Shown here: piece by piece, positions 2,902 to 58,776 of the stretch
How positions within the stretch are numbered: the stretch's first letter is position 1
Layout of the letters: every line of letters begins with the position of its first letter
Assembly: GCA_001782165.1 (NCBI GenBank)
Contig: MFNV01000002.1
Span: 81,002-145,001 of the forward strand
Direction of reading: 5' to 3'
From: Candidatus Levybacteria bacterium RIFCSPHIGHO2_01_FULL_41_15
GTDB taxonomy: Bacteria > Patescibacteriota > Microgenomatia > Levybacterales > UBA12049
Length of the DNA: 64,000 bases
Notes under the pieces: model-generated
What the model saw: only the letters and a program-made list of their open reading frames with translations
The model's database searches: none
What the model was told of the DNA's origin: nothing
Translations under genes and position numbers: made by a program

Positions 2902-5154
2902 TCAATCAAAGTTTGTTCTTTTAAGAAGTAAGGAATTCAGGACAACTGAAATCGAGGATGTTGCCATTGCCAAAGATGCAAATATCGGATTAAGAAGAAT
3001 CCCAAAAAAGGGATACAAAGCACCCATAGCAACAGGAATTAAACTTATATTATAACCAAAAGCCCAGAATAGATTTAATTTTATTGTTCTCATGGTTTTT
3101 TTAGAAAGTTCAATTGCTTTTGCTACAGATCTTAAGTCTTTATTTACAAGCGTTATATCCGCCGCTTCAATTGCTACATCTGTCCCCGAGCCAATAGCAA
3201 TTCCCACATCTGATGCGGCAAGTGCGGGAGCATCGTTTATCCCGTCTCCTACCATTGCAACTGTCTTTCCCTCTTTTTGAATGTTCCTCACCTCTTTTTC
3301 TTTATCCTCCGGTAGAACTTCCGAGAGCACTCTTTTTATTCCGACTTTTTGAGCTATCGCACTTGCGGTTCTTTGATTGTCTCCTGTAATCATTACAACT
3401 TCAATGCCTCTTTTATAAAGTGCTTTGACTCCTTCTGATGCAGTTTCTTTCAGGGTATCAGCTACAGCAATAAGACCCTTTAGTTCCTTGTTAACGGCAA
3501 GTATCATAACTGTTTTTCCCCCATTTTCAAGCGCCTCTACTTTATCTTCCTGTCCTTTAATTGAGATATTTTCTTTTTCCATTAGTTTCCGATTGCCTAA
3601 AAGAATGTTTTGTCTTTCGATAGTTCCCCTTACGCCAAATCCCGGAATTGCCTTAAACTGTGAAACTTTTTCAAGTTTCATGTTTTGCTCCTCGCTCTTT
3701 TTTACGATTGCTTCGGCAAGCGAATGTTCTGACCCTTTTTCCAAAGATGCCGCAAGTTGCAGCACCGACCTAGCAGGTCCGAAGCCTTTGACCTGCGAAG
3801 TCGAAACAATGTCTGTCACTTCAGGCTTCCCTTTTGTAAGGGTTCCAGTCTTGTCAAAAATTACCGTATCTATCTTATGAGCTGTTTCAAGGCTTTTTGC
3901 ATCTTTTATAAGAATTCCGTTCTCCGCTCCTCTACCTGTCCCTACCATAATAGCTGTCGGAGTTGCCAAGCCCATGGCGCAAGGGCAGGCGATGATAAGA
4001 ACTGCGACAGTATTAAGCATTGCAAACAGAAATGAAGGTGTGGGTCCTAGGATATACCAGAGGGCAAACGTAATGATTGCGAGTATGATTACAATTGGAA
4101 CGAAATAAGAGGAAACCAAGTCTGCCAATCGTTGAATCGGAGCCTTAGATCCCTGAGCCTCCTCTACAAGTTTTATAATTTGCGAAAGCATAGTTTCCTG
4201 TCCTACCTTGGTGGCTTTATAAACAAAAGTTCCGGTTTTATTGATGGTTGAGCCAATCACAGTATCCCCTTTTGTTTTATCAGACGGGATACTTTCTCCT
4301 GTTACCATTGATTCATCAACTGAGGAATCACCTTCCAAAATTTCTCCATCAACCGGTATCTTCTCACCCGGTCTTACCCTGATAACATCACCTATAACTA
4401 CTTGTTCTATAGGAATATCTACTTCTTTTCCCTTTCTTAATACTCTTGCTGTTTTAGCTTGCAGCCCAATTAATTTTTTGATTGCTTCAGATGTGCCAGC
4501 TTTAGCTTTGGCTTCAAAGTATCTACCCAATAAAATTAAACCAATAATAATAGTTGCTACGTCAAAATAAGGAGCAGGTTCAACCCCTATGTTTTTAACA
4601 ACCTGCGGAAAGACAGTAACAAAGGCAGAATAGAAATAAGCAACGGTTGTACCTATGGTAACAAGAGTATCCATGTTGGCAGTTCTGTGTTTGAGGGCAG
4701 GAATCGTGGCTCTGTAAAATTCAAATCCTGCCCAAAATTGTACAGGCGTTGCAAGAAGAAGTTGAATCCAAAAATTTTTCAAAATCAAAGGAGCAGTTTC
4801 TATAAGGGCCGGAAAGCTTCCCCAAACTAAGAATGTGCCTATGATAAGGCTTAAGCTTACTTTGTTTCTTAATTTTCTGATTTCTCTTAGTTTTTCTTTT
4901 TTTTCTTCATCTTCTATTGCCTCTCCTTGGTTTAAAATAGCTTCATATCCTACACTTGCTACTGCTGAAGAAAACTCTCTGTCCCCTGCTTTGTTAGGAT
5001 TATAGGTAACGGTTGCCTTTTCAGTTGCAAGATTTACATTAGCATCACTCACTCCCTCAATTTTTTTAAATGTTTCCTCAAGTATCCGCACGCATGATGC
5101 GCAATGCATGCCCTTTATTAAAAAGCTCCGCTTGGTCAATTGGTTGTTTAACAT
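2902..5154 (-). CDS. copA: copper-translocating P1B-type ATPase
   Basis: N-terminal HMA domain GMHCASC, CPC motif ([11 protein letters not shown]), DKTGTLT phosphorylation site, [10 protein letters not shown] hinge. 750 aa. Confidence 0.95.
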
Positions 5155-5679: not shown

Positions 5680-6969
5680 ATGAATCAGACCTGCCTTTCG
5701 GCGAGGCAAGTAATTCTTCATATCGACTTTGATTCGTTTTTTGCAAGCGTTGAACAGGAATATAATTCTAAGCTTCGGGGAAAACCCATAGGGGTCACGG
5801 CTACAAACGGAAGAACCTGTATTATTGCATCAAGCCGTGAGGCAAAAAAATTGGGAATTAAGACAGGAAGCAGATCCTATGATGCATTTAAAATCTGCCC
5901 TAGTTTAATTCTTGTTCCTGCTGATTTTGTCAAATACTTTGAGGTCTCTAAAAAGTTTCTTAGGATTTCCCAAGATTTTACTCCCTTTATTGAACTCTTT
6001 TCAATTGATGAAGTATTTATGGATATTACCCCTACCCTCCATTTATTTAATGATAATCCCCACAGAATTATTTTTGAAATTAAAAAAAGGATAAAAGAAG
6101 AAATTGGGGAATTTATAACGGTATCCGTTGGTATTTCTCATAATAGGCTTTTGGCCAAACTTGCCTCAGGCCTTAAAAAACCGGATGGAATATTTGAGAT
6201 TAATAAAGCAAATTTAGATAAAGTTTATAAAAATGCAAAACTTACAGACGTCTGCGGGATAGGTGAGCGAATCGCCGACAGATTAAATAAACTAGGGATA
6301 TATAATCTTTTGGATCTAAGGAATGAAAATATTCATATTCTGGAAAAGGAATTTGGGAAAGTTTATTCTAATGTTCTCAAGAACATTGGAATAGGTTTTG
6401 ACGATTCGCAAGTTGTTCCCTACACATTGGCACCAGATGTAAAATCTGTAGGAAGAAATTATTGTTTGCCTGCCAATGAATTTAATAAAAGAAAAATTCT
6501 ACAAAATACTTATGAACTGTGGGAAGAAGTCTGTATTAAGCTTCGAAGACTGAATAAAAAAGCAAGGACAATAGGATTTTCTTTGCGCGGAAATATCAAT
6601 ATTCATAAGAGAAAAACTTTTAATTTCCATTTTGATGATTCTAGGCAGATTTTTAATTTATTCAATTCTCTTTTTGATGAGGATAAAAATATATTTAATA
6701 AGAAGGGTTCTTATATTAGACAAATAAGCGTTTGGGTTTCCTCTTTGGAAGACGCGAAAAATCTGACCCTCCCGCTTTTTGATACAAATTATAAAAATAA
6801 TAAACTTTTATCTGCGGTTGATAAAATTAATGAACGTTTTGGGGATCATACAATTCGAAACGGCTTTCTCCTCTACTCCGATAAGCTTACGACAGTCCCC
6901 AACGGCTACATGGCAGATAAATACGAAAGGACCAAGCTCGCAAGGGAGTCAACTTTGGCTCCTGCATAA
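5680..6969 (+). CDS. dinB: DNA polymerase IV (Y-family translesion polymerase)
   Basis: ILHIDFDSFFASVEQ catalytic motif, then SIDEVFMDIT, VSVGISHNRLLAKLAS and a little-finger region. Start moved from the longest ORF (5617) to the in-frame ATG at 5680. Confidence 0.85.
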   Translation: MNQTCLSARQVILHIDFDSFFASVEQEYNSKLRGKPIGVTATNGRTCIIASSREAKKLGIKTGSRSYDAFKICPSLILVPADFVKYFEVSKKFLRISQDFTPFIELFSIDEVFMDITPTLHLFNDNPHRIIFEIKKRIKEEIGEFITVSVGISHNRLLAKLASGLKKPDGIFEINKANLDKVYKNAKLTDVCGIGERIADRLNKLGIYNLLDLRNENIHILEKEFGKVYSNVLKNIGIGFDDSQVVPYTLAPDVKSVGRNYCLPANEFNKRKILQNTYELWEEVCIKLRRLNKKARTIGFSLRGNINIHKRKTFNFHFDDSRQIFNLFNSLFDEDKNIFNKKGSYIRQISVWVSSLEDAKNLTLPLFDTNYKNNKLLSAVDKINERFGDHTIRNGFLLYSDKLTTVPNGYMADKYERTKLARESTLAPA

Positions 6970-7764
6970 AAAGTTCATCTCGGAGAGAACTTTTTCTTCC
7001 TGATCGGGGTTTAATCCCAAAATACTAATTTGGGATGGGTTCAGGCATATGTTTTTGCAAAGGACAATTCCATGAAGAAGAAGCATTTGCTTTTGGGAAG
7101 CAGTTAAGGATCTTATTGAGGTTATAGGATAAAGTTTTGCCTCCTCAACAAGTTCTCTTAGGCTTGCCTTTTCTGGATAATCCCAGCTTATTACCGTAAT
7201 TCCGCAGCAAAGTGAATATTTGAGAGCATCAGAGCTGACTTTGGTATTTGTGGTAATTAAGGCATGGTCAAAATGGTGCTGATATCTTAAGTCATCGAAT
7301 CTTGCTTTAGTATACAAAGCTACATGAACATCGGATTTTATTCCTGCTCCGTTGTGGAATTTTGCCTCTACCATAATTCGTTTTCCCCCTTTTTCTGCAA
7401 TTACATCTATCTCATGAGTGACGCATTTGCCCGCAAGAATTTGTCTTACTTTTGTTTCATATCCTTGAGTTTTTAGAATTTCAGAAATGTAATCCTCAAA
7501 CGGATAACCCGTAGGACCGAGCTCCATAATTCCCTTTTTTAAATTATATTTTGTTGCCAGAAACGGAGATGGTGAAGCATCAAGAAATTCGATTATATGG
7601 TCGTAGATTTCTCCTGTTGTTATATTTTCATACAATTTTGATTTAACATGGGTTAATACCTGTTCCTGAATATCATACGGAATTCCTGCTCTTTCAATTG
7701 AATTCAGAACCTTTTCTTCGGAAAACGGCTCCTTTTCCCCTGAGGCCTTGAGAACTGTAACCAT
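6949..7764 (-). CDS. ATP-cone domain fused to Mrr-like (PD-(D/E)xK) restriction endonuclease domain plus about 100-aa C-terminal region of unknown function
   Basis: N-terminus VLKASGEKEPFSEEKVLNSIERAG... (ATP-cone as in NrdR/RNR). Middle VTHEIDVIAEKGGKRIMVEAKFHN is the D-x(n)-E-x-K nuclease motif of Mrr_cat. Convergent with dinB and overlaps it by 21 bp. Confidence 0.55.
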   Translation of the reverse strand: MVTVLKASGEKEPFSEEKVLNSIERAGIPYDIQEQVLTHVKSKLYENITTGEIYDHIIEFLDASPSPFLATKYNLKKGIMELGPTGYPFEDYISEILKTQGYETKVRQILAGKCVTHEIDVIAEKGGKRIMVEAKFHNGAGIKSDVHVALYTKARFDDLRYQHHFDHALITTNTKVSSDALKYSLCCGITVISWDYPEKASLRELVEEAKLYPITSIRSLTASQKQMLLLHGIVLCKNICLNPSQISILGLNPDQEEKVLSEMNFLCRSQS

Positions 7765-15040: not shown

Positions 15041-15445
15041 ATGAGGACAATCATAAGAAACATTGTTTTCTATTCATTTTCTTTATTCGCTCTGACTCAA
15101 ATTATTTCTGGAGTTAAAATTACAGGAGGAATTGAGACTTTTGTTTTGGGAGGAGCGGTATTGTCTATAATGTTTCTTATAATAAAACCAGTGCTTGACC
15201 TTATTGCTCTGCCTTTTAATTTACTTACGCTTGGAACGTTTTCTTTTCTTTCAAATACTGTGATTCTTTACCTTCTTACTCTTTTTGTTCCCGAAATTAA
15301 GGTAACGTCCTTTTTATTCAAAGGTTTTTCCTATTCAGGATTTATAATTCCCCGAACAGAAGTAAATCAAGTTTTTGCCCTTATAGTGTCAGGACTTACT
15401 CTATCTGCTATAATTACTTTCCTGACATGGTTAATAAGAAAATAG
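15041..15445 (+). CDS. small 4-TM membrane protein (DUF360/phage-holin-superfamily-IV-like)
   Basis: 134 aa, four hydrophobic helices, no enzymatic motif. Confidence 0.35.
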   Translation: MRTIIRNIVFYSFSLFALTQIISGVKITGGIETFVLGGAVLSIMFLIIKPVLDLIALPFNLLTLGTFSFLSNTVILYLLTLFVPEIKVTSFLFKGFSYSGFIIPRTEVNQVFALIVSGLTLSAIITFLTWLIRK

Positions 15446-19246: not shown

Positions 19247-21011
19247 TTAATATTCCTCCTCCTACAACCAACCCCCATTTACTAAAGAGAATCGGGTAAA
19301 TTCTTACTCTGCGTTCAAACAAATTTGATCCAAGGCCAATTCTAATAAGATCTGTTCTATTTGTCAAAGGATTTGCCGCCTCAAACGATAAAGGCAAGAC
19401 TAAATTTCCGTATGGAGGTATAGGTTTTAAGTAAATATTTTGTAAATTGGGCTTGAGATAATAAGATCTGACTGTAATTTTTTGGGGAAAAGAGAGCAGT
19501 GTTCCCGTATTTTCCAGCGTAATATTTCCCATAAGGGGAAGTCCTGCTGTCAGATTTTTGGGGATGTTGTCTGAAATTTCAAGGGTCGGGCTGGTGTGTG
19601 CAAATTCATTAGCAAAACTGACTCTTACATCTTTAACTTTTTCATTCCCCGGCAGTTTATACCCGCCTGCAGGAACCGGATAGGTACTGTCGTGCCCTTT
19701 TATTACAAACGCAATGTGGTCAAAATCAAGAGTCTCAAAATAATCTATTCCGCCGGTTGTATTCCCCCAAGTAGGATCAACCATAATCCACGCGGCTTTT
19801 TCTCTATCATAGTATTCAGGCCAGGCATGCAAAACATCCTTTACCAAAGACAAAGGCCTTTCTCTGGTATTTTGAGTATAGGCGTATCCGTCCACCTCTC
19901 TTGCCGGAATTCCTGAAGCTCTTGCCAATGCAATAAAAAGATCTGTAAATTCAAGACACACTGCGGATTCAGGTTTTTGAAGCACTCCGGCGGCGCCTAT
20001 TCTGGGTTTTTCAGTCTCAACTCTTGAATAATCGTATTTTAATTTTTTAACAACGTACTCATATATAGATTTCGGGTTTTTAAGGTTTCTTGACAGCTGT
20101 TTGATTTCGTTATTTGATATCTGCCAATACTTGTCTTCCTTTAGGTAGCTTTGCAGTTGTTCTTCGGTGTAGTTTTGCTTTTCAGGAAAAAGAGAGATTT
20201 TGACTTTTGCCTTCAAGGATACATCAAGCCTTTGAGAGGAGGAAAGAGTATATTGTGCAAGCCAATTTCCATCCTCATCTATCGTTACGTTTGAAGGCTT
20301 AGGGTTAATGCTGTCTATCTCAACTTCCTGATACCCTGTATTAGGAGGAAGAGCTATTTCTGTTTTAATAGGAAAAAGGTTTTTATTATAGAGGTGATAG
20401 GTCAAATCTAATTTATAAATCTGCTCATTTCCAAACGTAATTGAAATACCCGAATTCCCAAGCTGGTCTTTTGAAAAGGTGTAAATGTTTTCATTTTTCT
20501 TAAGTCCATCTGAAAGGCTGGGTTTGACAAAACTTGGAGAGCCAAAAGAGGAAGGGACGGAAACATAAACACTAAAGTCTGATAAATCAGATTGGCTTAA
20601 AAAACCTGGTATATTTACTTCCCATATTTTGCCTACTTTTCTGGCAACTTCATTAGTATCAAAAGCAATTGTAAAATTTAGCTTGTTTCCAAGACCCGTT
20701 ATCCTGTCATTGAAAATAACATTTATTTCCTGTCCTTCGGAGGTTTTAGAAACACTCTTAAGAATATTGCCTCCTAAGTCAGATGCTCTCGGATTTTTAG
20801 GATCATCAAAACCCACGTTTATTTTGTAAGAAGATGCATAATATGATGAAGTTTTATTCGTAAGGGCAACTTTTATCTCAACACGGGTATTTCCGTTTTC
20901 TGAAACCGCATATGATATGTCATAATCCGCATCAAAATTTGAAGATGCCGATGTTTTCCCAGGCAGAAAAAGGAGGAATAGAAGCAAGAATACCAATAAT
21001 ATTTTTTTCAC
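19176..21011 (-). CDS. secreted, C-terminally membrane-anchored transglutaminase-like (Cys-His-Asp) domain protein
   Basis: Signal peptide MKKILLVFLLLFLLFLPGKTSA. Core CLEFTDLFIALARASGIPAREVDGYAY...LHAWPEYYD...WIMVDPTW (C/H/D triad). C-terminal TM WGLVVGGGILIVAIFISALAF. Confidence 0.7.
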   Translation of the reverse strand: MKKILLVFLLLFLLFLPGKTSASSNFDADYDISYAVSENGNTRVEIKVALTNKTSSYYASSYKINVGFDDPKNPRASDLGGNILKSVSKTSEGQEINVIFNDRITGLGNKLNFTIAFDTNEVARKVGKIWEVNIPGFLSQSDLSDFSVYVSVPSSFGSPSFVKPSLSDGLKKNENIYTFSKDQLGNSGISITFGNEQIYKLDLTYHLYNKNLFPIKTEIALPPNTGYQEVEIDSINPKPSNVTIDEDGNWLAQYTLSSSQRLDVSLKAKVKISLFPEKQNYTEEQLQSYLKEDKYWQISNNEIKQLSRNLKNPKSIYEYVVKKLKYDYSRVETEKPRIGAAGVLQKPESAVCLEFTDLFIALARASGIPAREVDGYAYTQNTRERPLSLVKDVLHAWPEYYDREKAAWIMVDPTWGNTTGGIDYFETLDFDHIAFVIKGHDSTYPVPAGGYKLPGNEKVKDVRVSFANEFAHTSPTLEISDNIPKNLTAGLPLMGNITLENTGTLLSFPQKITVRSYYLKPNLQNIYLKPIPPYGNLVLPLSFEAANPLTNRTDLIRIGLGSNLFERRVRIYPILFSKWGLVVGGGILIVAIFISALAFKSWNIPFFGQKG

Positions 21012-27061: not shown

Positions 27062-27436
27062 ATGGAGTGGGAAGAAGCAAAGGATGTTGAGAAAGATATA
27101 GAGCAATTACTTAAATCTATTTCGCTTCCCCACTTAAAGGCCTCCCGTATTTTTTGTTTCCGAACCCATGGGTCAAAATCCAGGTCCTATGCGCGAATAT
27201 GGTCAATGCCGAAGATTTTTCAAAAAGCTTTGTCAATTGAGCCTGCTTATGTAATTGAAGTTTTGGGAAAATACTATGACCGGCTGCCCGATGATAACAA
27301 AAAGAAAATTCTTATTCACGAACTCCTTCATATACCAAAGAATTTTTCAGGGTCACTCCTTCCCCACCGGTCAAGGGGAAGACACCTTGGTTCGATCGTA
27401 AATAAACTTTTTAAAGAATATAAAAATTCTATATGA
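27062..27436 (+). CDS. small putative zinc metallopeptidase (HExxH; SprT/DUF45-like)
   Basis: 124 aa with HELLHIPKNFSGSLLPHR (HExxH plus downstream His). Confidence 0.4.
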   Translation: MEWEEAKDVEKDIEQLLKSISLPHLKASRIFCFRTHGSKSRSYARIWSMPKIFQKALSIEPAYVIEVLGKYYDRLPDDNKKKILIHELLHIPKNFSGSLLPHRSRGRHLGSIVNKLFKEYKNSI

Positions 27437-38267: not shown

Positions 38268-38347
38268 ATCCACTCATTTAAAATTCTTAAGAAAATGGGA
38301 ATAATTAAAAAATAAAAAATTATTCTGATTTGCTATAATAATTAAGC

Positions 38348-57825: not shown

Positions 57826-58006
57826 GCCGGAGTAACTCAGTGGTAGAGTAGCTCTTTCGCCCGCCTGCCATAGCTTGCCAGGATAGCTCAGCTGGTAGAG
57901 CAAGGCTTTCGTAAAGCCGAGGTCGTGGGTTCAAATCCCACTCCTGGCTCAGGCAAGCGGCGGACAGGTAAAGAGCAAGTCGTGGGTTCAAGTCCCACCT
58001 CCGGCT
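57826..58006 (+). tRNA. interrupted 'host' tRNA (Thr-like identity; anticodon depends on splice sites) carrying a 116-nt anticodon-loop intervening sequence that contains tRNA-Thr(CGT)
   Basis: 5' half GCCGGAG/TA/ACTC-AGTGGTA-GAGT/A/GCTCT (57826-57855). 3' half AGAGC/AAGTC/GTGGG-TTCAAGT-CCCAC/CTCCGGC/T (57972-58006). 7/7 acceptor, 4/4 D, 5/5 anticodon, 5/5 T stem pairs. T-arm nearly identical to the nested tRNA-Thr. Confidence 0.6.
57877..57949 (+). tRNA. tRNA-Thr(CGT), nested inside the intervening sequence of the host tRNA
   Basis: GCCAGGA/TA/GCTC-AGCTGGT-AGAGC/A/AGGCT-TTCGTAA-AGCCG/AGGTC/GTGGG-TTCAAAT-CCCAC/TCCTGGC/T. Anticodon CGU. G1-C72 and C2-G71 are Thr-type. Confidence 0.85.
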
Positions 58007-58059
58007 CACATTCTGTACTAAGTTTAATTGAAGTAACTCGTACTGAGTTTTATCGAAGT

Positions 58060-58776
58060 ATGAATAGGAATAAATATTCCCGCCTTTCAAAGCGGCTTGA
58101 AAAGCAGTCTCAAAAAAACCTAATATTAAGTGCTCTTGGAATACTTGTAGTTATTTTCCTTCTTGTGAAATTCGGAATTCCCCTTCTTGTAAATTTTTCC
58201 GTATTTATAGGAAGCTTGGGCAAAGCTGATGAGACCGTTAAAACCGAAACCGAAAGCTTTGTAACTGCGCCCATACTCGATATACCTTTTACTGCCACAA
58301 ACAGTGCTCAAACAAGAATAACAGGGCAGTCAACAGCAGAATCCACAGTTTCAGTTTATCTTAACGGTTCCCTTTTTGAAAAAAACGAAGTTGAGAAGGA
58401 TGGAATTTTCTCTTTTTTAATAACTTTAAATGATGGAGAAAATAGAATAAAAGCAAAAGCTGAGAAAGATAATAAAGAAAGCGACTTCTCTGATGAGCTT
58501 ATTATTATTTATCAGAATAAACCTCCATCTCTTGAGATAAAGTCGCCAACAGAAGGCCAAAAATTTGAAAAAGATCAGAACACGGTTATTGTTACCGGAA
58601 AAACAGATTCGGGAACAAGAGTAACTGTTAACAGCTTTTGGGCGCAGATTGATGAGGAAAATAATTTTTCATACAATCTGACTCTTCATGATGGAGATAA
58701 CGAAATAAAAATAATCGCAGAAGACAAAGCTGGCAATAAAACAGAAAAAAATATAAAGGTCAATTATTCTCCGTAA
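58060..58776 (+). CDS. membrane-anchored protein with two Ig-like (Big-like) beta-sandwich repeats
   Basis: Start moved to ATG at 58060 (the longer ORF overlaps the tRNA genes). TM LILSALGILVVIFLLV. Two about 90-aa repeats ending ...DGENRIKAKAEKD / ...DGDNEIKIIAEDKAGN. Confidence 0.4.
   Translation: MNRNKYSRLSKRLEKQSQKNLILSALGILVVIFLLVKFGIPLLVNFSVFIGSLGKADETVKTETESFVTAPILDIPFTATNSAQTRITGQSTAESTVSVYLNGSLFEKNEVEKDGIFSFLITLNDGENRIKAKAEKDNKESDFSDELIIIYQNKPPSLEIKSPTEGQKFEKDQNTVIVTGKTDSGTRVTVNSFWAQIDEENNFSYNLTLHDGDNEIKIIAEDKAGNKTEKNIKVNYSP

Follow-up and report, generated by a model that had tools for sequence, protein, structure and literature searches.

Rickettsia palindromic elements (RPEs) and MITEs are short, non-coding insertions that are GC-rich compared with their genome and whose terminal inverted repeats form a hairpin. 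They occur in many copies across a lineage and show insertion polymorphism between relatives, and RPE copies are tolerated in frame in protein genes as well as in RNA genes. Archaeal tRNA genes with bulge-helix-bulge (BHB) introns, including multi-intron and split genes (e.g. the intron transposition of Thermoproteales), are interrupted at several loop positions by inserts with shared ends, the removal of which restores the cloverleaf. In the BHB, a 4-bp helix separates two 3-nt bulges that hold the splice sites, and the host encodes a splicing endonuclease (EndA) and an RNA ligase. Group I introns of tRNA genes have a conserved catalytic core (P3–P9), are typically ca. 200 nt or more in length, are preceded by U at −1, which forms a G·U pair in P1, and end in G. 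Integrase-type genomic islands, which are flanked by att direct repeats, target tRNA genes as well, and the element preserves the function of the gene with a copy of the displaced 3′ end. In GIY-YIG homing cassettes, a gene is disrupted, its replacement arrives with the element, and displaced fragments remain; for example, a GIY-YIG ORF in the mitochondrial atp6 of Allomyces brings a replacement gene end. In Patescibacteria, group I introns interrupt tRNA genes at position 35/36 (PMC13011429), and SegB of phage T4, which lies in a tRNA cluster, is an example of intronless homing by a GIY-YIG enzyme (PMC2330249).

The window, a 64-kb stretch of DNA from a Candidatus Levybacteria genome (Patescibacteria/CPR), contains a tRNA-Thr(CGT) and a tRNA-Gly(CCC) gene that are each split between nt 35 and 36, by inserts of 109 and 108 nt, respectively. 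Each insert starts with YCCGCCTGC, ends with GGCGGRCAGG, and contains a complete tRNA of identical anticodon. All features of the two loci are on the + strand. The outer tRNA-Thr(CGT) has its 5′ half (positions 1–35) at 57826–57859 and its 3′ half at 57969–58007, as located by ARAGORN runs on the spliced gene and, after masking of the inner tRNA, on the window. The insert between them (57860–57968) is bounded by the 5′ terminus CCCGCCTGCC (57860–57869) and the 3′ terminus GGCGGACAGG (57959–57968), and the inner tRNA-Thr(CGT) at 57877–57950 (ARAGORN; Rfam RF00005, 67.1 bits) is likely the working gene. Deletion of the 109 nt joins GCUCUUUCG to UAAAGAGC and gives a perfect tRNA-Thr(CGT) cloverleaf with the anticodon of the inner tRNA.

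The Gly locus is built in the same way. The halves of the outer tRNA-Gly(CCC) are at 38348–38381 and 38490–38527 (ARAGORN), the insert at 38382–38489 has the termini TCCGCCTGCA (38382–38391) and GGCGGGCAGG (38480–38489), and the inner tRNA-Gly(CCC) is at 38400–38472 (ARAGORN; Rfam, 67.2 bits). Removal of the 108 nt joins CUACCUUCC to CAAGGUGG, again restoring a perfect cloverleaf with the anticodon of the inner tRNA. An extended −10-like element, TGCTATAAT, was read directly at 38331–38339, 8 nt upstream of the outer gene, having been missed by a two-hexamer promoter scan; it is probably the sole promoter for both nested Gly genes, and an identical 9-mer precedes the tRNA-His locus (2704–2712). 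With introns allowed, ARAGORN reported the outer genes only after the inner tRNAs had been masked, and its intron boundary was often off by one nucleotide, which produced wrong anticodons. Boundaries between N35 and the initial Y, and between the final CAGG and N36, are those that give matching anticodons everywhere.

The ends, 5′-YCCGCCTGCC ... GGCGGRCAGG-3′, form an imperfect 10-bp inverted repeat. The 10-bp helix of CCCGCCTGCC with GGCGGGCAGG contains one C·A mismatch and one U·G pair, and both positions are invariant in the register-0 helix of the ends. Conservation of the ends in sequence implies a specific recognising factor. An extension of the helix beyond the 10-mers was not adopted, as the 45% pairing seen there, against 22–39% in shifted registers, supports it weakly. 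Counts in the window exceed those expected from shuffling: CCGCCTGC has three copies against 0.35, GGCGGRCAGG has two (38480 and 57959) against 0.04, and CCGCC...GGCGG arms no more than 120 nt apart occur six times against 0.4. Two of the CCGCCTGC copies are at the Gly (38383) and Thr (57861) loci, and the third, at 19663 within a transglutaminase-like ORF, looks like a chance match. Five of the six arm pairs lie at tRNA loci, one of them being the acceptor stem of tRNA-Glu. The sequence-only reading had placed motif sequences at the Thr, Gly, and His loci, all of which were found at those positions, and the distance that it gave between the motif helix and the anticodon stem agrees with ours (5 nt on the 5′ side and 8 nt on the 3′ side). 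The motif and the nesting are hence confirmed.

Relatives carry the outer genes at the same loci in uninterrupted form. An uninterrupted tRNA-Thr(CGT) is present in four Levybacteria loci (L008–L011) with synteny around the ATP synthase operon, the gene in three of these, those of L008 and L011 included, being 92–93% identical to the outer Thr gene of the window, and an uninterrupted tRNA-Gly(CCC) is present in three loci (L164–L166) with synteny around the gene for PolX, a family X DNA polymerase. Both inserts are thus shown to be lineage-specific gains into an ancestral gene. The outer tRNA-Gly is 93% identical to its uninterrupted counterpart in L165; it has G1:U72, and A5:U68 where L165 has G:C. 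When the outer Thr gene is compared with its L011 orthologue, all four substitutions fall in the T-arm beside the insert, three of them to the base that the inner tRNA has. The cluster resembles a conversion tract, being a single case that gene conversion from inner to outer tRNA explains as well as co-conversion of the flank does.

We then scanned 185,579 species genomes for the motif, with a pattern that demanded part of a T-loop between the ends and that had been tightened beforehand, after chance matches in viral contigs. The scan returned 72 loci. In sixty of them, the halves of a tRNA gene enclose an intact inner tRNA of the same anticodon, and the other 12 are chance matches in GC-rich ORFs. 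In viral contigs, all seven matches to the motif-plus-T-loop pattern were due to chance, in GC-rich phage ORFs without a tRNA. The nested loci lie in AT-rich genomes, 49 of the 60 being labelled as CPR groups, have exact junctions, and cover at least 13 anticodons. The unit is ca. 100–135 bp long and usually sits at nt 35/36, occasionally at 34/35 or in the T-loop. Together with the two elements of the window, the inner tRNA is intact in 62 of 62, under a pattern that itself required part of the T-loop; for the same reason, the pattern covers no copies that lack cargo and interrupt the anticodon loop of a tRNA gene present once, which would speak for splicing. Among 58 assessable outer genes (the window's two included), 35 fold once the insert is simply taken out, every one of them with the anticodon of the inner tRNA. 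These data show that the nested architecture recurs across the phylum with anticodons always matching, and the anticodon shared by inner and outer tRNA is the central regularity of the nested units.

Across genomes, inner tRNAs are about as similar to each other as outer tRNAs are. This supports neither a single, recently spreading lineage of inner tRNAs nor a recent horizontal spread of whole cargo-bearing units. A function as DNA-uptake sequence was discarded, as few 10-mers occur elsewhere than at tRNA genes. The insert is preceded by G in Thr and C in Gly, and C, G, or A at other loci, so the target is not sequence-specific, as it would be for an IS91-type GTTC site. All inserts have a terminal G. 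Inside the termini, the Gly, Thr, and Arg elements have a scaffold in common (ATAGCCTG...GGCGAT), and in one case the termini are reversed (CCTGCCCGCC...GGCAGGCGGG) around a tRNA-Arg(TCG) cargo that remains on the same strand.

Degeneration, truncation, or further GC-hairpin inserts affect many of the outer genes. Decay takes the form of a mutated anticodon (L047 and L070), an 8-nt loop (L061), truncation (L015, L016, and L050), or broken stems (L012, L023, and L052), and extra GC hairpins occur in outer D- or T-loops of L022, L026, L032, L057, L063, L067, and L083. GC palindromes are also found in frame within long ORFs. The thioredoxin reductase (TrxB) homologue of L071 has in-frame insertions at residues 96–129 and 303–361 relative to solved TrxR structures in the PDB, the second of which contains CCCGCCTGC...GGCGGGCAGG, and more in-frame copies are in ORFs of L075 and L077. 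These copies suggest that the element type acts as DNA rather than as spliced RNA.

On this basis, we favor, with a probability of roughly 0.6, that the motif marks the ends of a small GC-rich palindromic DNA insertion which encloses a cognate tRNA and resides in a tRNA gene of the same anticodon. The nesting, the empty sites, the conversion-like tract, the recurrence, the decay of outer genes, the ORF copies, the flipped termini, the shared scaffold, the lack of a BHB or of an Rfam intron or ribozyme match, and the GIY-YIG ORFs next to tRNA fragments support it. Against it speak the 35 outer genes that still fold as perfect cloverleaves, the conserved ends with the recognising factor that they imply, the missing target-site duplication, the lack of a transposase or nuclease gene in the 64-kb window, the likeness of inner tRNAs across genomes, which is no greater than that of outer tRNAs, and the rarity of the motif around independently sampled GIY-YIG genes. 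The insertion would inactivate the outer gene, and the inner tRNA, transcribed from the promoter of the outer gene and freed by ordinary RNase P and 3′-end processing, would take over its function. While the inner tRNA folds, the GC-rich helix of the termini may hold the two outer halves apart from it. As a selfish gene-replacement cassette, the unit would persist and spread; homologous recombination, in which the conserved tRNA halves serve as homology arms, is the most likely route. A structure-specific or homing-type nuclease, for instance a small GIY-YIG enzyme, may start such events. The flipped termini and the scaffolds common to several tRNA classes suggest that a palindrome already inserted may receive the cargo at its center.

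Compared with RPEs and MITEs, the element shares the short, non-coding, GC-rich form, the hairpin-forming terminal inverted repeats that recur (in 60 genomes and the window), the presence or absence at orthologous sites (the Thr and Gly sites being empty in L008–L011 and L164–L166), and the RPE hallmark of in-frame copies in protein genes. It differs in that its arms enclose a complete tRNA gene, a form seen only inside a tRNA gene of the same anticodon, in its insertion at the centers of hairpin loops, and in that the exact junctions lack a target-site duplication and no transposase or other nuclease gene is encoded in the 64-kb window. Group I introns in Patescibacteria tRNA genes (PMC13011429) have the phylum, the 35/36 point, and the final G in common with it. 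The 108/109-nt inserts, however, are mostly tRNA (73–74 nt) and have no P3–P9 core; neither locus has a group I (RF00028) or other ribozyme match in Rfam at E ≤ 1, only tRNA and sub-threshold tRNA-like hits; and the preceding base is G or C instead of U, with fixed ends unrelated to the exon. A group I identity was hence rejected. The archaeal introns resemble the inserts in their several loop positions, their shared ends, and the restored cloverleaf, but here the host is bacterial, the ends are intron-internal and do not form an exon–intron helix, a cognate tRNA is part of the insert, and the outer genes decay. Minimum free energy and centroid folds of both 181–183-nt precursors contain no BHB, the junctions lying in a continuous irregular helix, which rules against a BHB identity and against the relaxed helix-bulge-helix geometry that had been suggested. 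Like genomic islands, the element targets a tRNA gene and preserves its function; unlike them, it is ca. 110 bp long without an ORF or integrase, has no att-type direct repeats at its junctions, and brings a complete tRNA instead of a 3′ segment. The sequence-only reading had proposed either a tRNA-processing signal or a mobile intron-like element targeting anticodon loops. The mobile element comes close to our findings, given the absence from orthologous loci and the recurrence of the termini in 60 genomes. The processing signal and the intron-like character are not supported, in view of the missing BHB, the missing group I or ribozyme match, the in-frame TrxB copy, the flipped termini, and the decay of outer genes.

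Perfect tRNAs left by exact removal of the insert at 35 of 58 assessable loci would also be produced by a new kind of bacterial tRNA intron, in which a protein or a trans-acting RNA recognises the end helix, cuts at its base, and ligates the halves, so that one transcript yields two tRNAs of the same anticodon, the inner one from the excised intron. Such an intron would account for ends conserved like a splice-site consensus with an invariable final G, for inserts centered in the anticodon loop or T-loop with extra hairpins in outer D- and T-loops as in multi-intron archaeal tRNAs, and for the compensatory G:C to A:U change in the outer Gly gene relative to L165, and group I introns at 35/36 are known in the phylum (PMC13011429). 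Yet a cargo that is always the cognate tRNA would be needless if splicing restored the outer gene, and many outer genes are degenerate, truncated, or anticodon-mutated while every recovered inner tRNA is intact. The termini are kept in frame in TrxB and other ORFs, and flipping them alters an RNA helix while leaving a DNA element the same. Folds and Rfam show neither a BHB nor a ribozyme, and the 64-kb window encodes no splicing endonuclease or RNA ligase. We therefore regard an intron as unlikely. Its specific form, a protein-dependent tRNA splicing in Patescibacteria that recognises the CCCGCCUGCC/GGCGGGCAGG helix with its fixed C·A and U·G positions, cuts inserts out of anticodon, D-, and T-loops, and rejoins the halves, with inserts moving like archaeal introns, is a shade more doubtful still; if true, the nested units would be two-for-one tRNA genes and the first case of protein-dependent tRNA splicing in bacteria. 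Chance similarity, an assembly artefact, or ordinary tandem duplication without a shared element is hardly credible: the motifs are short and GC-rich, and 12 of 72 genome hits and 7 of 7 viral-contig hits arose by chance, but sixty loci in AT-rich genomes share nesting, anticodon, and exact junctions, the window counts are far above the shuffled expectation, and four independent assemblies of the species agree in every base of a 347-bp Thr region, which is thus no assembly artefact.

The insert could instead be a homing-endonuclease cassette or its ORF-less remnant, where a nuclease cuts the intact tRNA gene and repair proceeds from an allele with insert and replacement; the motif would then be a residue of the cassette or its landing site. 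The fetched CPR loci contain eight small GIY-YIG ORFs (PF01541), all of which abut tRNA genes or fragments. Most of them follow the order tRNA fragment, GIY-YIG, complete tRNA, fragment, with the pieces on either side of the ORF belonging to the same tRNA; some are within ca. 600 nt of nested tRNAs (L012, L027, L054, and L064), and others are in His, Glu, and Gln loci having partial tRNA copies. The copy in L027 sits at 35/36 of a tRNA-Gly(TCC) gene and immediately follows a hairpin region, TCCGCC...GGCGGGCAAGG. Among 80 metagenome loci picked by the GIY-YIG gene alone, with three closer sequences as the eight-sequence alignment was too divergent, ca. 48 have a same-strand tRNA within ca. 180 nt, and at least 16 have an exact 12–34-nt partial tRNA copy in the flank, usually across the ORF from the tRNA. 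The conversion-like T-arm tract of the outer Thr gene and the precedent of T4 SegB (PMC2330249) fit as well, and these loci, like homing cassettes, combine a disrupted gene with an incoming replacement and displaced fragments. The window elements, by contrast, have no ORF and nest a whole tRNA at the loop center, and no small GIY-YIG gene is in the 64-kb window. The motif is rare around the independently sampled GIY-YIG genes (six hits in 275 kb), so the link is weak and circumstantial, and a tight one was rejected. The CPR proteins, of 80–116 residues, comprise the catalytic domain only, without a known DNA-binding domain; cleavage of tRNA genes is a putative activity of theirs. A homing cassette is thus improbable, if marginally less so than an intron. 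The co-occurring nuclease or ligase gene that the sequence-only reading suggested looking for is absent from the window, while small GIY-YIG genes, weakly linked, are present in related loci, inside tRNA genes that are disrupted or duplicated in a similar way.

The open-access literature searched contains no case of a tRNA gene with a complete tRNA of identical anticodon nested at its anticodon; within it, the architecture appears to be new. If the palindromic insertion is as proposed, a small selfish element can hit an essential gene that a minimal genome has only once, since it brings the replacement with it. The nested loci offer a living example for the origin of interrupted, split, or replaced tRNA genes, and they point to two candidates, a factor that recognises the conserved ends and the small GIY-YIG nucleases found within tRNA genes. 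Standard tRNA finders report the inner gene only, and the outer genes and their turnover are therefore invisible in CPR annotations.

Aside from the two nested loci, a GGCGGG-first hairpin is located near tRNA-Asp, at 39229–39246 and not at 39237–39254 as earlier read. Its arms are in the opposite order to those of the element, with the G-arm first; a relation is hence unproven, and the hairpin was not counted as part of the element. The tRNA-His leader (2729–2770, + strand), 16 nt upstream of the complete tRNA-His (2787–2862), is probably a remnant of a related element. It contains a 14-nt partial copy of the tRNA-His 5′ end, GGTGGATGTAGCTC (2729–2742), and a CCGCC...GGCGG hairpin (2742–2765) with an ACAAG tail to 2770. 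An orthologous tRNA-His locus was not found in relatives, where the neighboring copper-ATPase gene is in a different context. The layout of the leader matches that of L075 (6617–6989), in which the partial and the complete tRNA-His are separated by a GIY-YIG ORF.

The tRNA-Thr(CGT) and tRNA-Gly(CCC) genes of the window are each interrupted by an insert that itself contains a complete tRNA. A canonical tRNA-Thr(CGT) cloverleaf results once 57860-57968 is cut out, and a canonical tRNA-Gly(CCC) cloverleaf once 38382-38489 is cut out; with the inner tRNAs masked, ARAGORN itself reports both outer genes. The insertion point lies between nucleotides 35 and 36 at both loci, and each inner gene shares its anticodon with the outer one. 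Four independent assemblies from different samples agree exactly in the sequence of the Thr region. Read by eye, TGCTATAAT is found 8 nt ahead of the outer Gly gene and recurs as an identical 9-mer before the His locus, and TTGCTC-17-TAAAAT is located upstream of the outer Thr gene, as it is in relatives; a two-hexamer promoter scan flagged neither arrangement. As no obvious promoter was seen inside either insert and these promoter-like sequences precede the outer genes, we infer that the inner tRNAs would be transcribed from the outer-gene promoters. A listed 283-aa ORF with a GTG start (57925-58776) overlaps the nested Thr locus. It is probably spurious at its 5' end; the ATG at 58060, the start used in relatives, is the most likely first codon of the Glucodextran_B/Ig-like protein.

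The insert ends follow the consensus 5'-CCCGCCTGCC-A-N-N-G-C ... R-Y-GGCGGGCAGG-3'. The two 10-mers pair end to end into a helix that begins with a pair between the two terminal nucleotides of the insert. The C.A at pair 3 and the U.G at pair 7 are invariant, both positions being fixed by our search pattern, and pairing past the 10-mers is modestly above controls (45% vs 22-39% in shifted registers). In the folds of both window precursors, an irregular terminal helix runs on from the outer anticodon stem. These folds contain no bulge-helix-bulge (BHB), and the relaxed helix-bulge-helix geometry proposed in the sequence-only reading is thus not borne out. An Rfam search of both loci at E<=1 gave nothing beyond the inner tRNAs and sub-threshold tRNA-like matches.

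The window, of 32-40% G+C, encodes UvrA, UvrB, DnaE, F-type ATP synthase, and CTP synthase and is bacterial; its ATP synthase beta subunit (the atpD product) matches a protein of Candidatus Levybacteria bacterium RIFCSPLOWO2_01_FULL_38, a member of the Patescibacteria (CPR), at 100% identity. ARAGORN and Rfam each find nine tRNAs. Three copies of CCGCCTGC (0.35 expected) and two of GGCGGRCAGG (0.04 expected) were counted. Each motif is present at the Thr and Gly loci, where they had been correctly placed from the sequence; the third CCGCCTGC copy, at 19663, is within a transglutaminase-like ORF. Six CCGCC...GGCGG pairs at most 120 nt apart were counted against 0.4 expected, five of them at tRNA loci, including one that is the acceptor stem of tRNA-Glu. 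The tRNA-His region (2729-2862) has in its leader, as had been claimed, a partial copy of a tRNA-His 5' end, here 14 nt from a different tRNA-His, followed by a CCGCC...GGCGG-ACAAG hairpin. Copy and hairpin follow the promoter-like TGCTATAAT (2704-2712), precede the complete tRNA-His, and are probably what is left of a resident gene that was displaced. The hairpin described near tRNA-Asp does exist, only at 39229-39246 and with its arm order reversed, and nothing found ties it to the element.

The Thr and Gly inserts are gains. In four related Levybacteria contigs (L008-L011), the gene order of the ATP synthase operon neighbourhood is kept, and all four have one uninterrupted tRNA-Thr(CGT) at the matching intergenic position. 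The genes of L008 and L011 are 92-93% identical to the outer gene of the window vs 75% to the inner one. L009 has the same tRNA-Thr sequence as L008, so that three of the four closely match the outer gene; the identity of L010 to the outer gene is only 74%. Relative to L011, the outer Thr gene has four substitutions; all fall in the T-arm adjoining the insert, three agree with the inner tRNA, and the cluster looks like a conversion tract. An uninterrupted tRNA-Gly(CCC) is likewise found in three relatives (L164-L166), between a LysM gene and its upstream neighbours. Its strand is opposite to that of the nested copy in the window (38348-38527), which implies that the change went together with either a local inversion or replacement of the segment. 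Identity to the outer gene is 93% for the L165 gene, and the L164 gene resembles the inner gene (76%), indicating that both tRNA-Gly types circulate as residents at this locus. Neither insert is present at these orthologous loci.

We scanned one-genome-per-species GTDB for T33 and both ends with a T-loop between them, and 72 loci matched. At 60 of these (0.29-0.60 G+C), an intact tRNA lies between tRNA halves or fragments. The finding is confirmed, and the nested arrangement is far broader than was visible from the window. The remaining 12 are chance matches in ORFs, all at loci of 0.60-0.70 G+C (Sphingomonas, Brevundimonas, and others). Labels of 49 of the 60 are CPR: Saccharibacteria, Parcubacteria lineages, and Microgenomates lineages, among the latter a further Levybacteria genome (L077). 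Labels of the remaining 11 are non-CPR or unspecific, and their contig G+C is likewise low to moderate; we suspect that these contigs were placed in wrong genome bins. Contigs with nested tRNAs whose records name Gammaproteobacteria, Pseudomonadales, Desulfotomaculum, Methyloversatilis, Ignavibacteria, or Bdellovibrionales (L012, L014, L022, L027, L042, L053, L070, L082, L018, L054, L066, and L074) have a CPR-like, low to moderate G+C and are probably misbinned or mislabelled CPR. The main motif occurs with the anticodons Thr CGT/TGT, Gly CCC/TCC, Arg TCT/CCT, Ile GAT/TAT, Ala CGC/TGC, Glu CTC, Trp CCA, and Met CAT, and variant motifs extend the list to Val TAC, Arg TCG, and Cys GCA. The junction is mostly 35/36; it is 34/35 in Glu, and lies in the T-loop (56/57) in L028 and L074.

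Two readings of the insert were compared: a true bacterial tRNA intron, removed by splicing, and an insertion at the DNA level that would put the outer gene out of function. Among the 60 loci and the two of the window, 35 outer genes fold on simple removal of the insert, with the inner anticodon in 35/35. The inner tRNA is intact in 62/62 elements, the pattern having forced just part of its T-loop, and many outer genes are damaged; both points favour DNA insertion. Specifically, the anticodon is mutated in L047 (AAT vs GAT) and L070, the loop has 8 nt in L061, the 3' or 5' portion is absent in L015, L016, and L050, stems are mismatched in L012, L023, and L052, and extra GC-hairpin inserts occupy D- or T-loops in L022, L026, L032, L057, L063, L067, and L083. 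The cargo is cognate to the outer gene in every case, which is needed for compensation and superfluous under splicing, and so favours DNA insertion. The same holds for a nested tRNA-Arg(TCG) (L074) whose ends are reverse-complemented with the cargo still on the strand of the outer gene: flipping leaves a DNA element unchanged and alters an RNA helix. Members of the same palindrome family (CCTGCCTGCC/GGCAGGCAGG and CCCGCCTGC...GGCGGGCAGG) also occur in frame within long ORFs. A thioredoxin reductase (TrxB) homologue in L071 (1283-2494) aligns with solved thioredoxin reductases as three blocks, between which lie two in-frame insertions, of 34 and 59 residues (aa 96-129 and 303-361 vs PDB structures), that coincide with two GC-rich palindromic elements, one bounded by CCCGCCTGC...GGCGGGCAGG. 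These behave like the Rickettsia palindromic elements, for which in-frame insertion into ORFs is known.

We therefore favour DNA insertion, and regard a mobile, palindrome-bounded insertion that replaces the resident tRNA as the best explanation (probability about 0.6). The mobile-element part of the earlier proposal comes close to this; a true bacterial tRNA intron is a less likely but live minority reading. A scaffold inside the ends (ATAGCCTG...GGCGAT) is common to Gly, Thr, and Arg elements, and inner and outer genes are near-identical outside the acceptor stem at some loci (89% in L042, 86% in L077). Together with the flipped ends, this suggests a two-step origin of the mobile insertion: insertion of the palindrome, in one orientation or the other, would be followed by a cognate tRNA copy being installed at its centre or homogenised through gene conversion.

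A co-occurring nuclease or ligase had been proposed as a further lead. Neither a small GIY-YIG gene nor an RNA ligase or splicing endonuclease is encoded in the 64-kb window. We found eight small GIY-YIG ORFs (PF01541, 80-116 aa) in the CPR loci that were retrieved, and 8/8 adjoin tRNA genes or fragments: Glu(TTC) and Gly(TCC) in L027 (3205-3627 and 6647-6970), Gly(CCC) in L012 (2064-2396), Gly(TCC) in L064 (5837-6235), Gly(TCC) and His in L075 (2191-2529 and 6661-6909), Gln in L015 (7262-7630), and one in L054 (1105-1413). Most share a layout of a tRNA fragment, the GIY-YIG ORF, a complete tRNA, and a fragment; in most, the fragment and the complete tRNA on either side of the ORF belong to one and the same tRNA. 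The L027 Gly(TCC) copy lies at 35/36, immediately after a TCCGCC...GGCGGGCAAGG hairpin region, and the L075 His locus, with a CCTGCCTGCCGGCAGGCAGG hairpin in its partial copy, parallels the ORF-less His leader of the window. The end of the tRNA D-arm copy directly supplies the GIY-YIG start codon in L012 and L075. Among 80 independent metagenome loci (L084-L163) selected on the GIY-YIG gene alone, ca. 48 have a same-strand tRNA within ~180 nt, and for at least 16 the flanks contain an exact partial copy (12-34 nt) of the neighbouring tRNA, mostly across the ORF. In CPR, the small GIY-YIG units thus look like a general mini-cassette directed at tRNA genes. Matches to the 10-mer motif are rare around these GIY-YIG genes (6 in 275 kb). 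In L128 (~3050-3500), layered tRNA-Cys(GCA) fragments divided by CCCGCC...GGCGGG-type hairpins surround one intact copy, suggesting repeated rounds of invasion. We conclude that GIY-YIG cassettes and motif-bounded nested tRNAs are separate phenomena that sometimes coincide, and that each remodels CPR tRNA genes. At L027 ~3150-3700, two partial tRNA-Glu(TTC) copies have, at 35/36, a ~95-nt insert that lacks tRNA cargo and has other ends (TCCCGG...CCGGGA). Between these copies lie the GIY-YIG ORF and an intact tRNA-Glu identical to their exons.

Among the nearest works are one study that reportedly deals with insertions in CPR rRNA genes (PMC11270868) and another said to concern T4 SegB (PMC2330249). 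We found no description of cognate nested tRNAs or of the end motif in open-access full text. Also among the nearest are a description of group I introns at 35/36 in Patescibacteria tRNAs (PMC13011429) and the tFind preprint, which covers group I introns only. In L088 (725-1039), ARAGORN calls a Thr(TGT) tRNA with a 242-nt anticodon-loop insert, which resembles a group I intron-containing tRNA-Asn(GTT) misannotated likewise (PMC13011429). Dispersed between the housekeeping genes of the window are genes for a protein with ATP-cone and Mrr-type restriction endonuclease domains (6949-7764), a holin-like protein (Phage_holin_4_2, 15041-15445), and a phage-type metallopeptidase domain protein (27062-27436).
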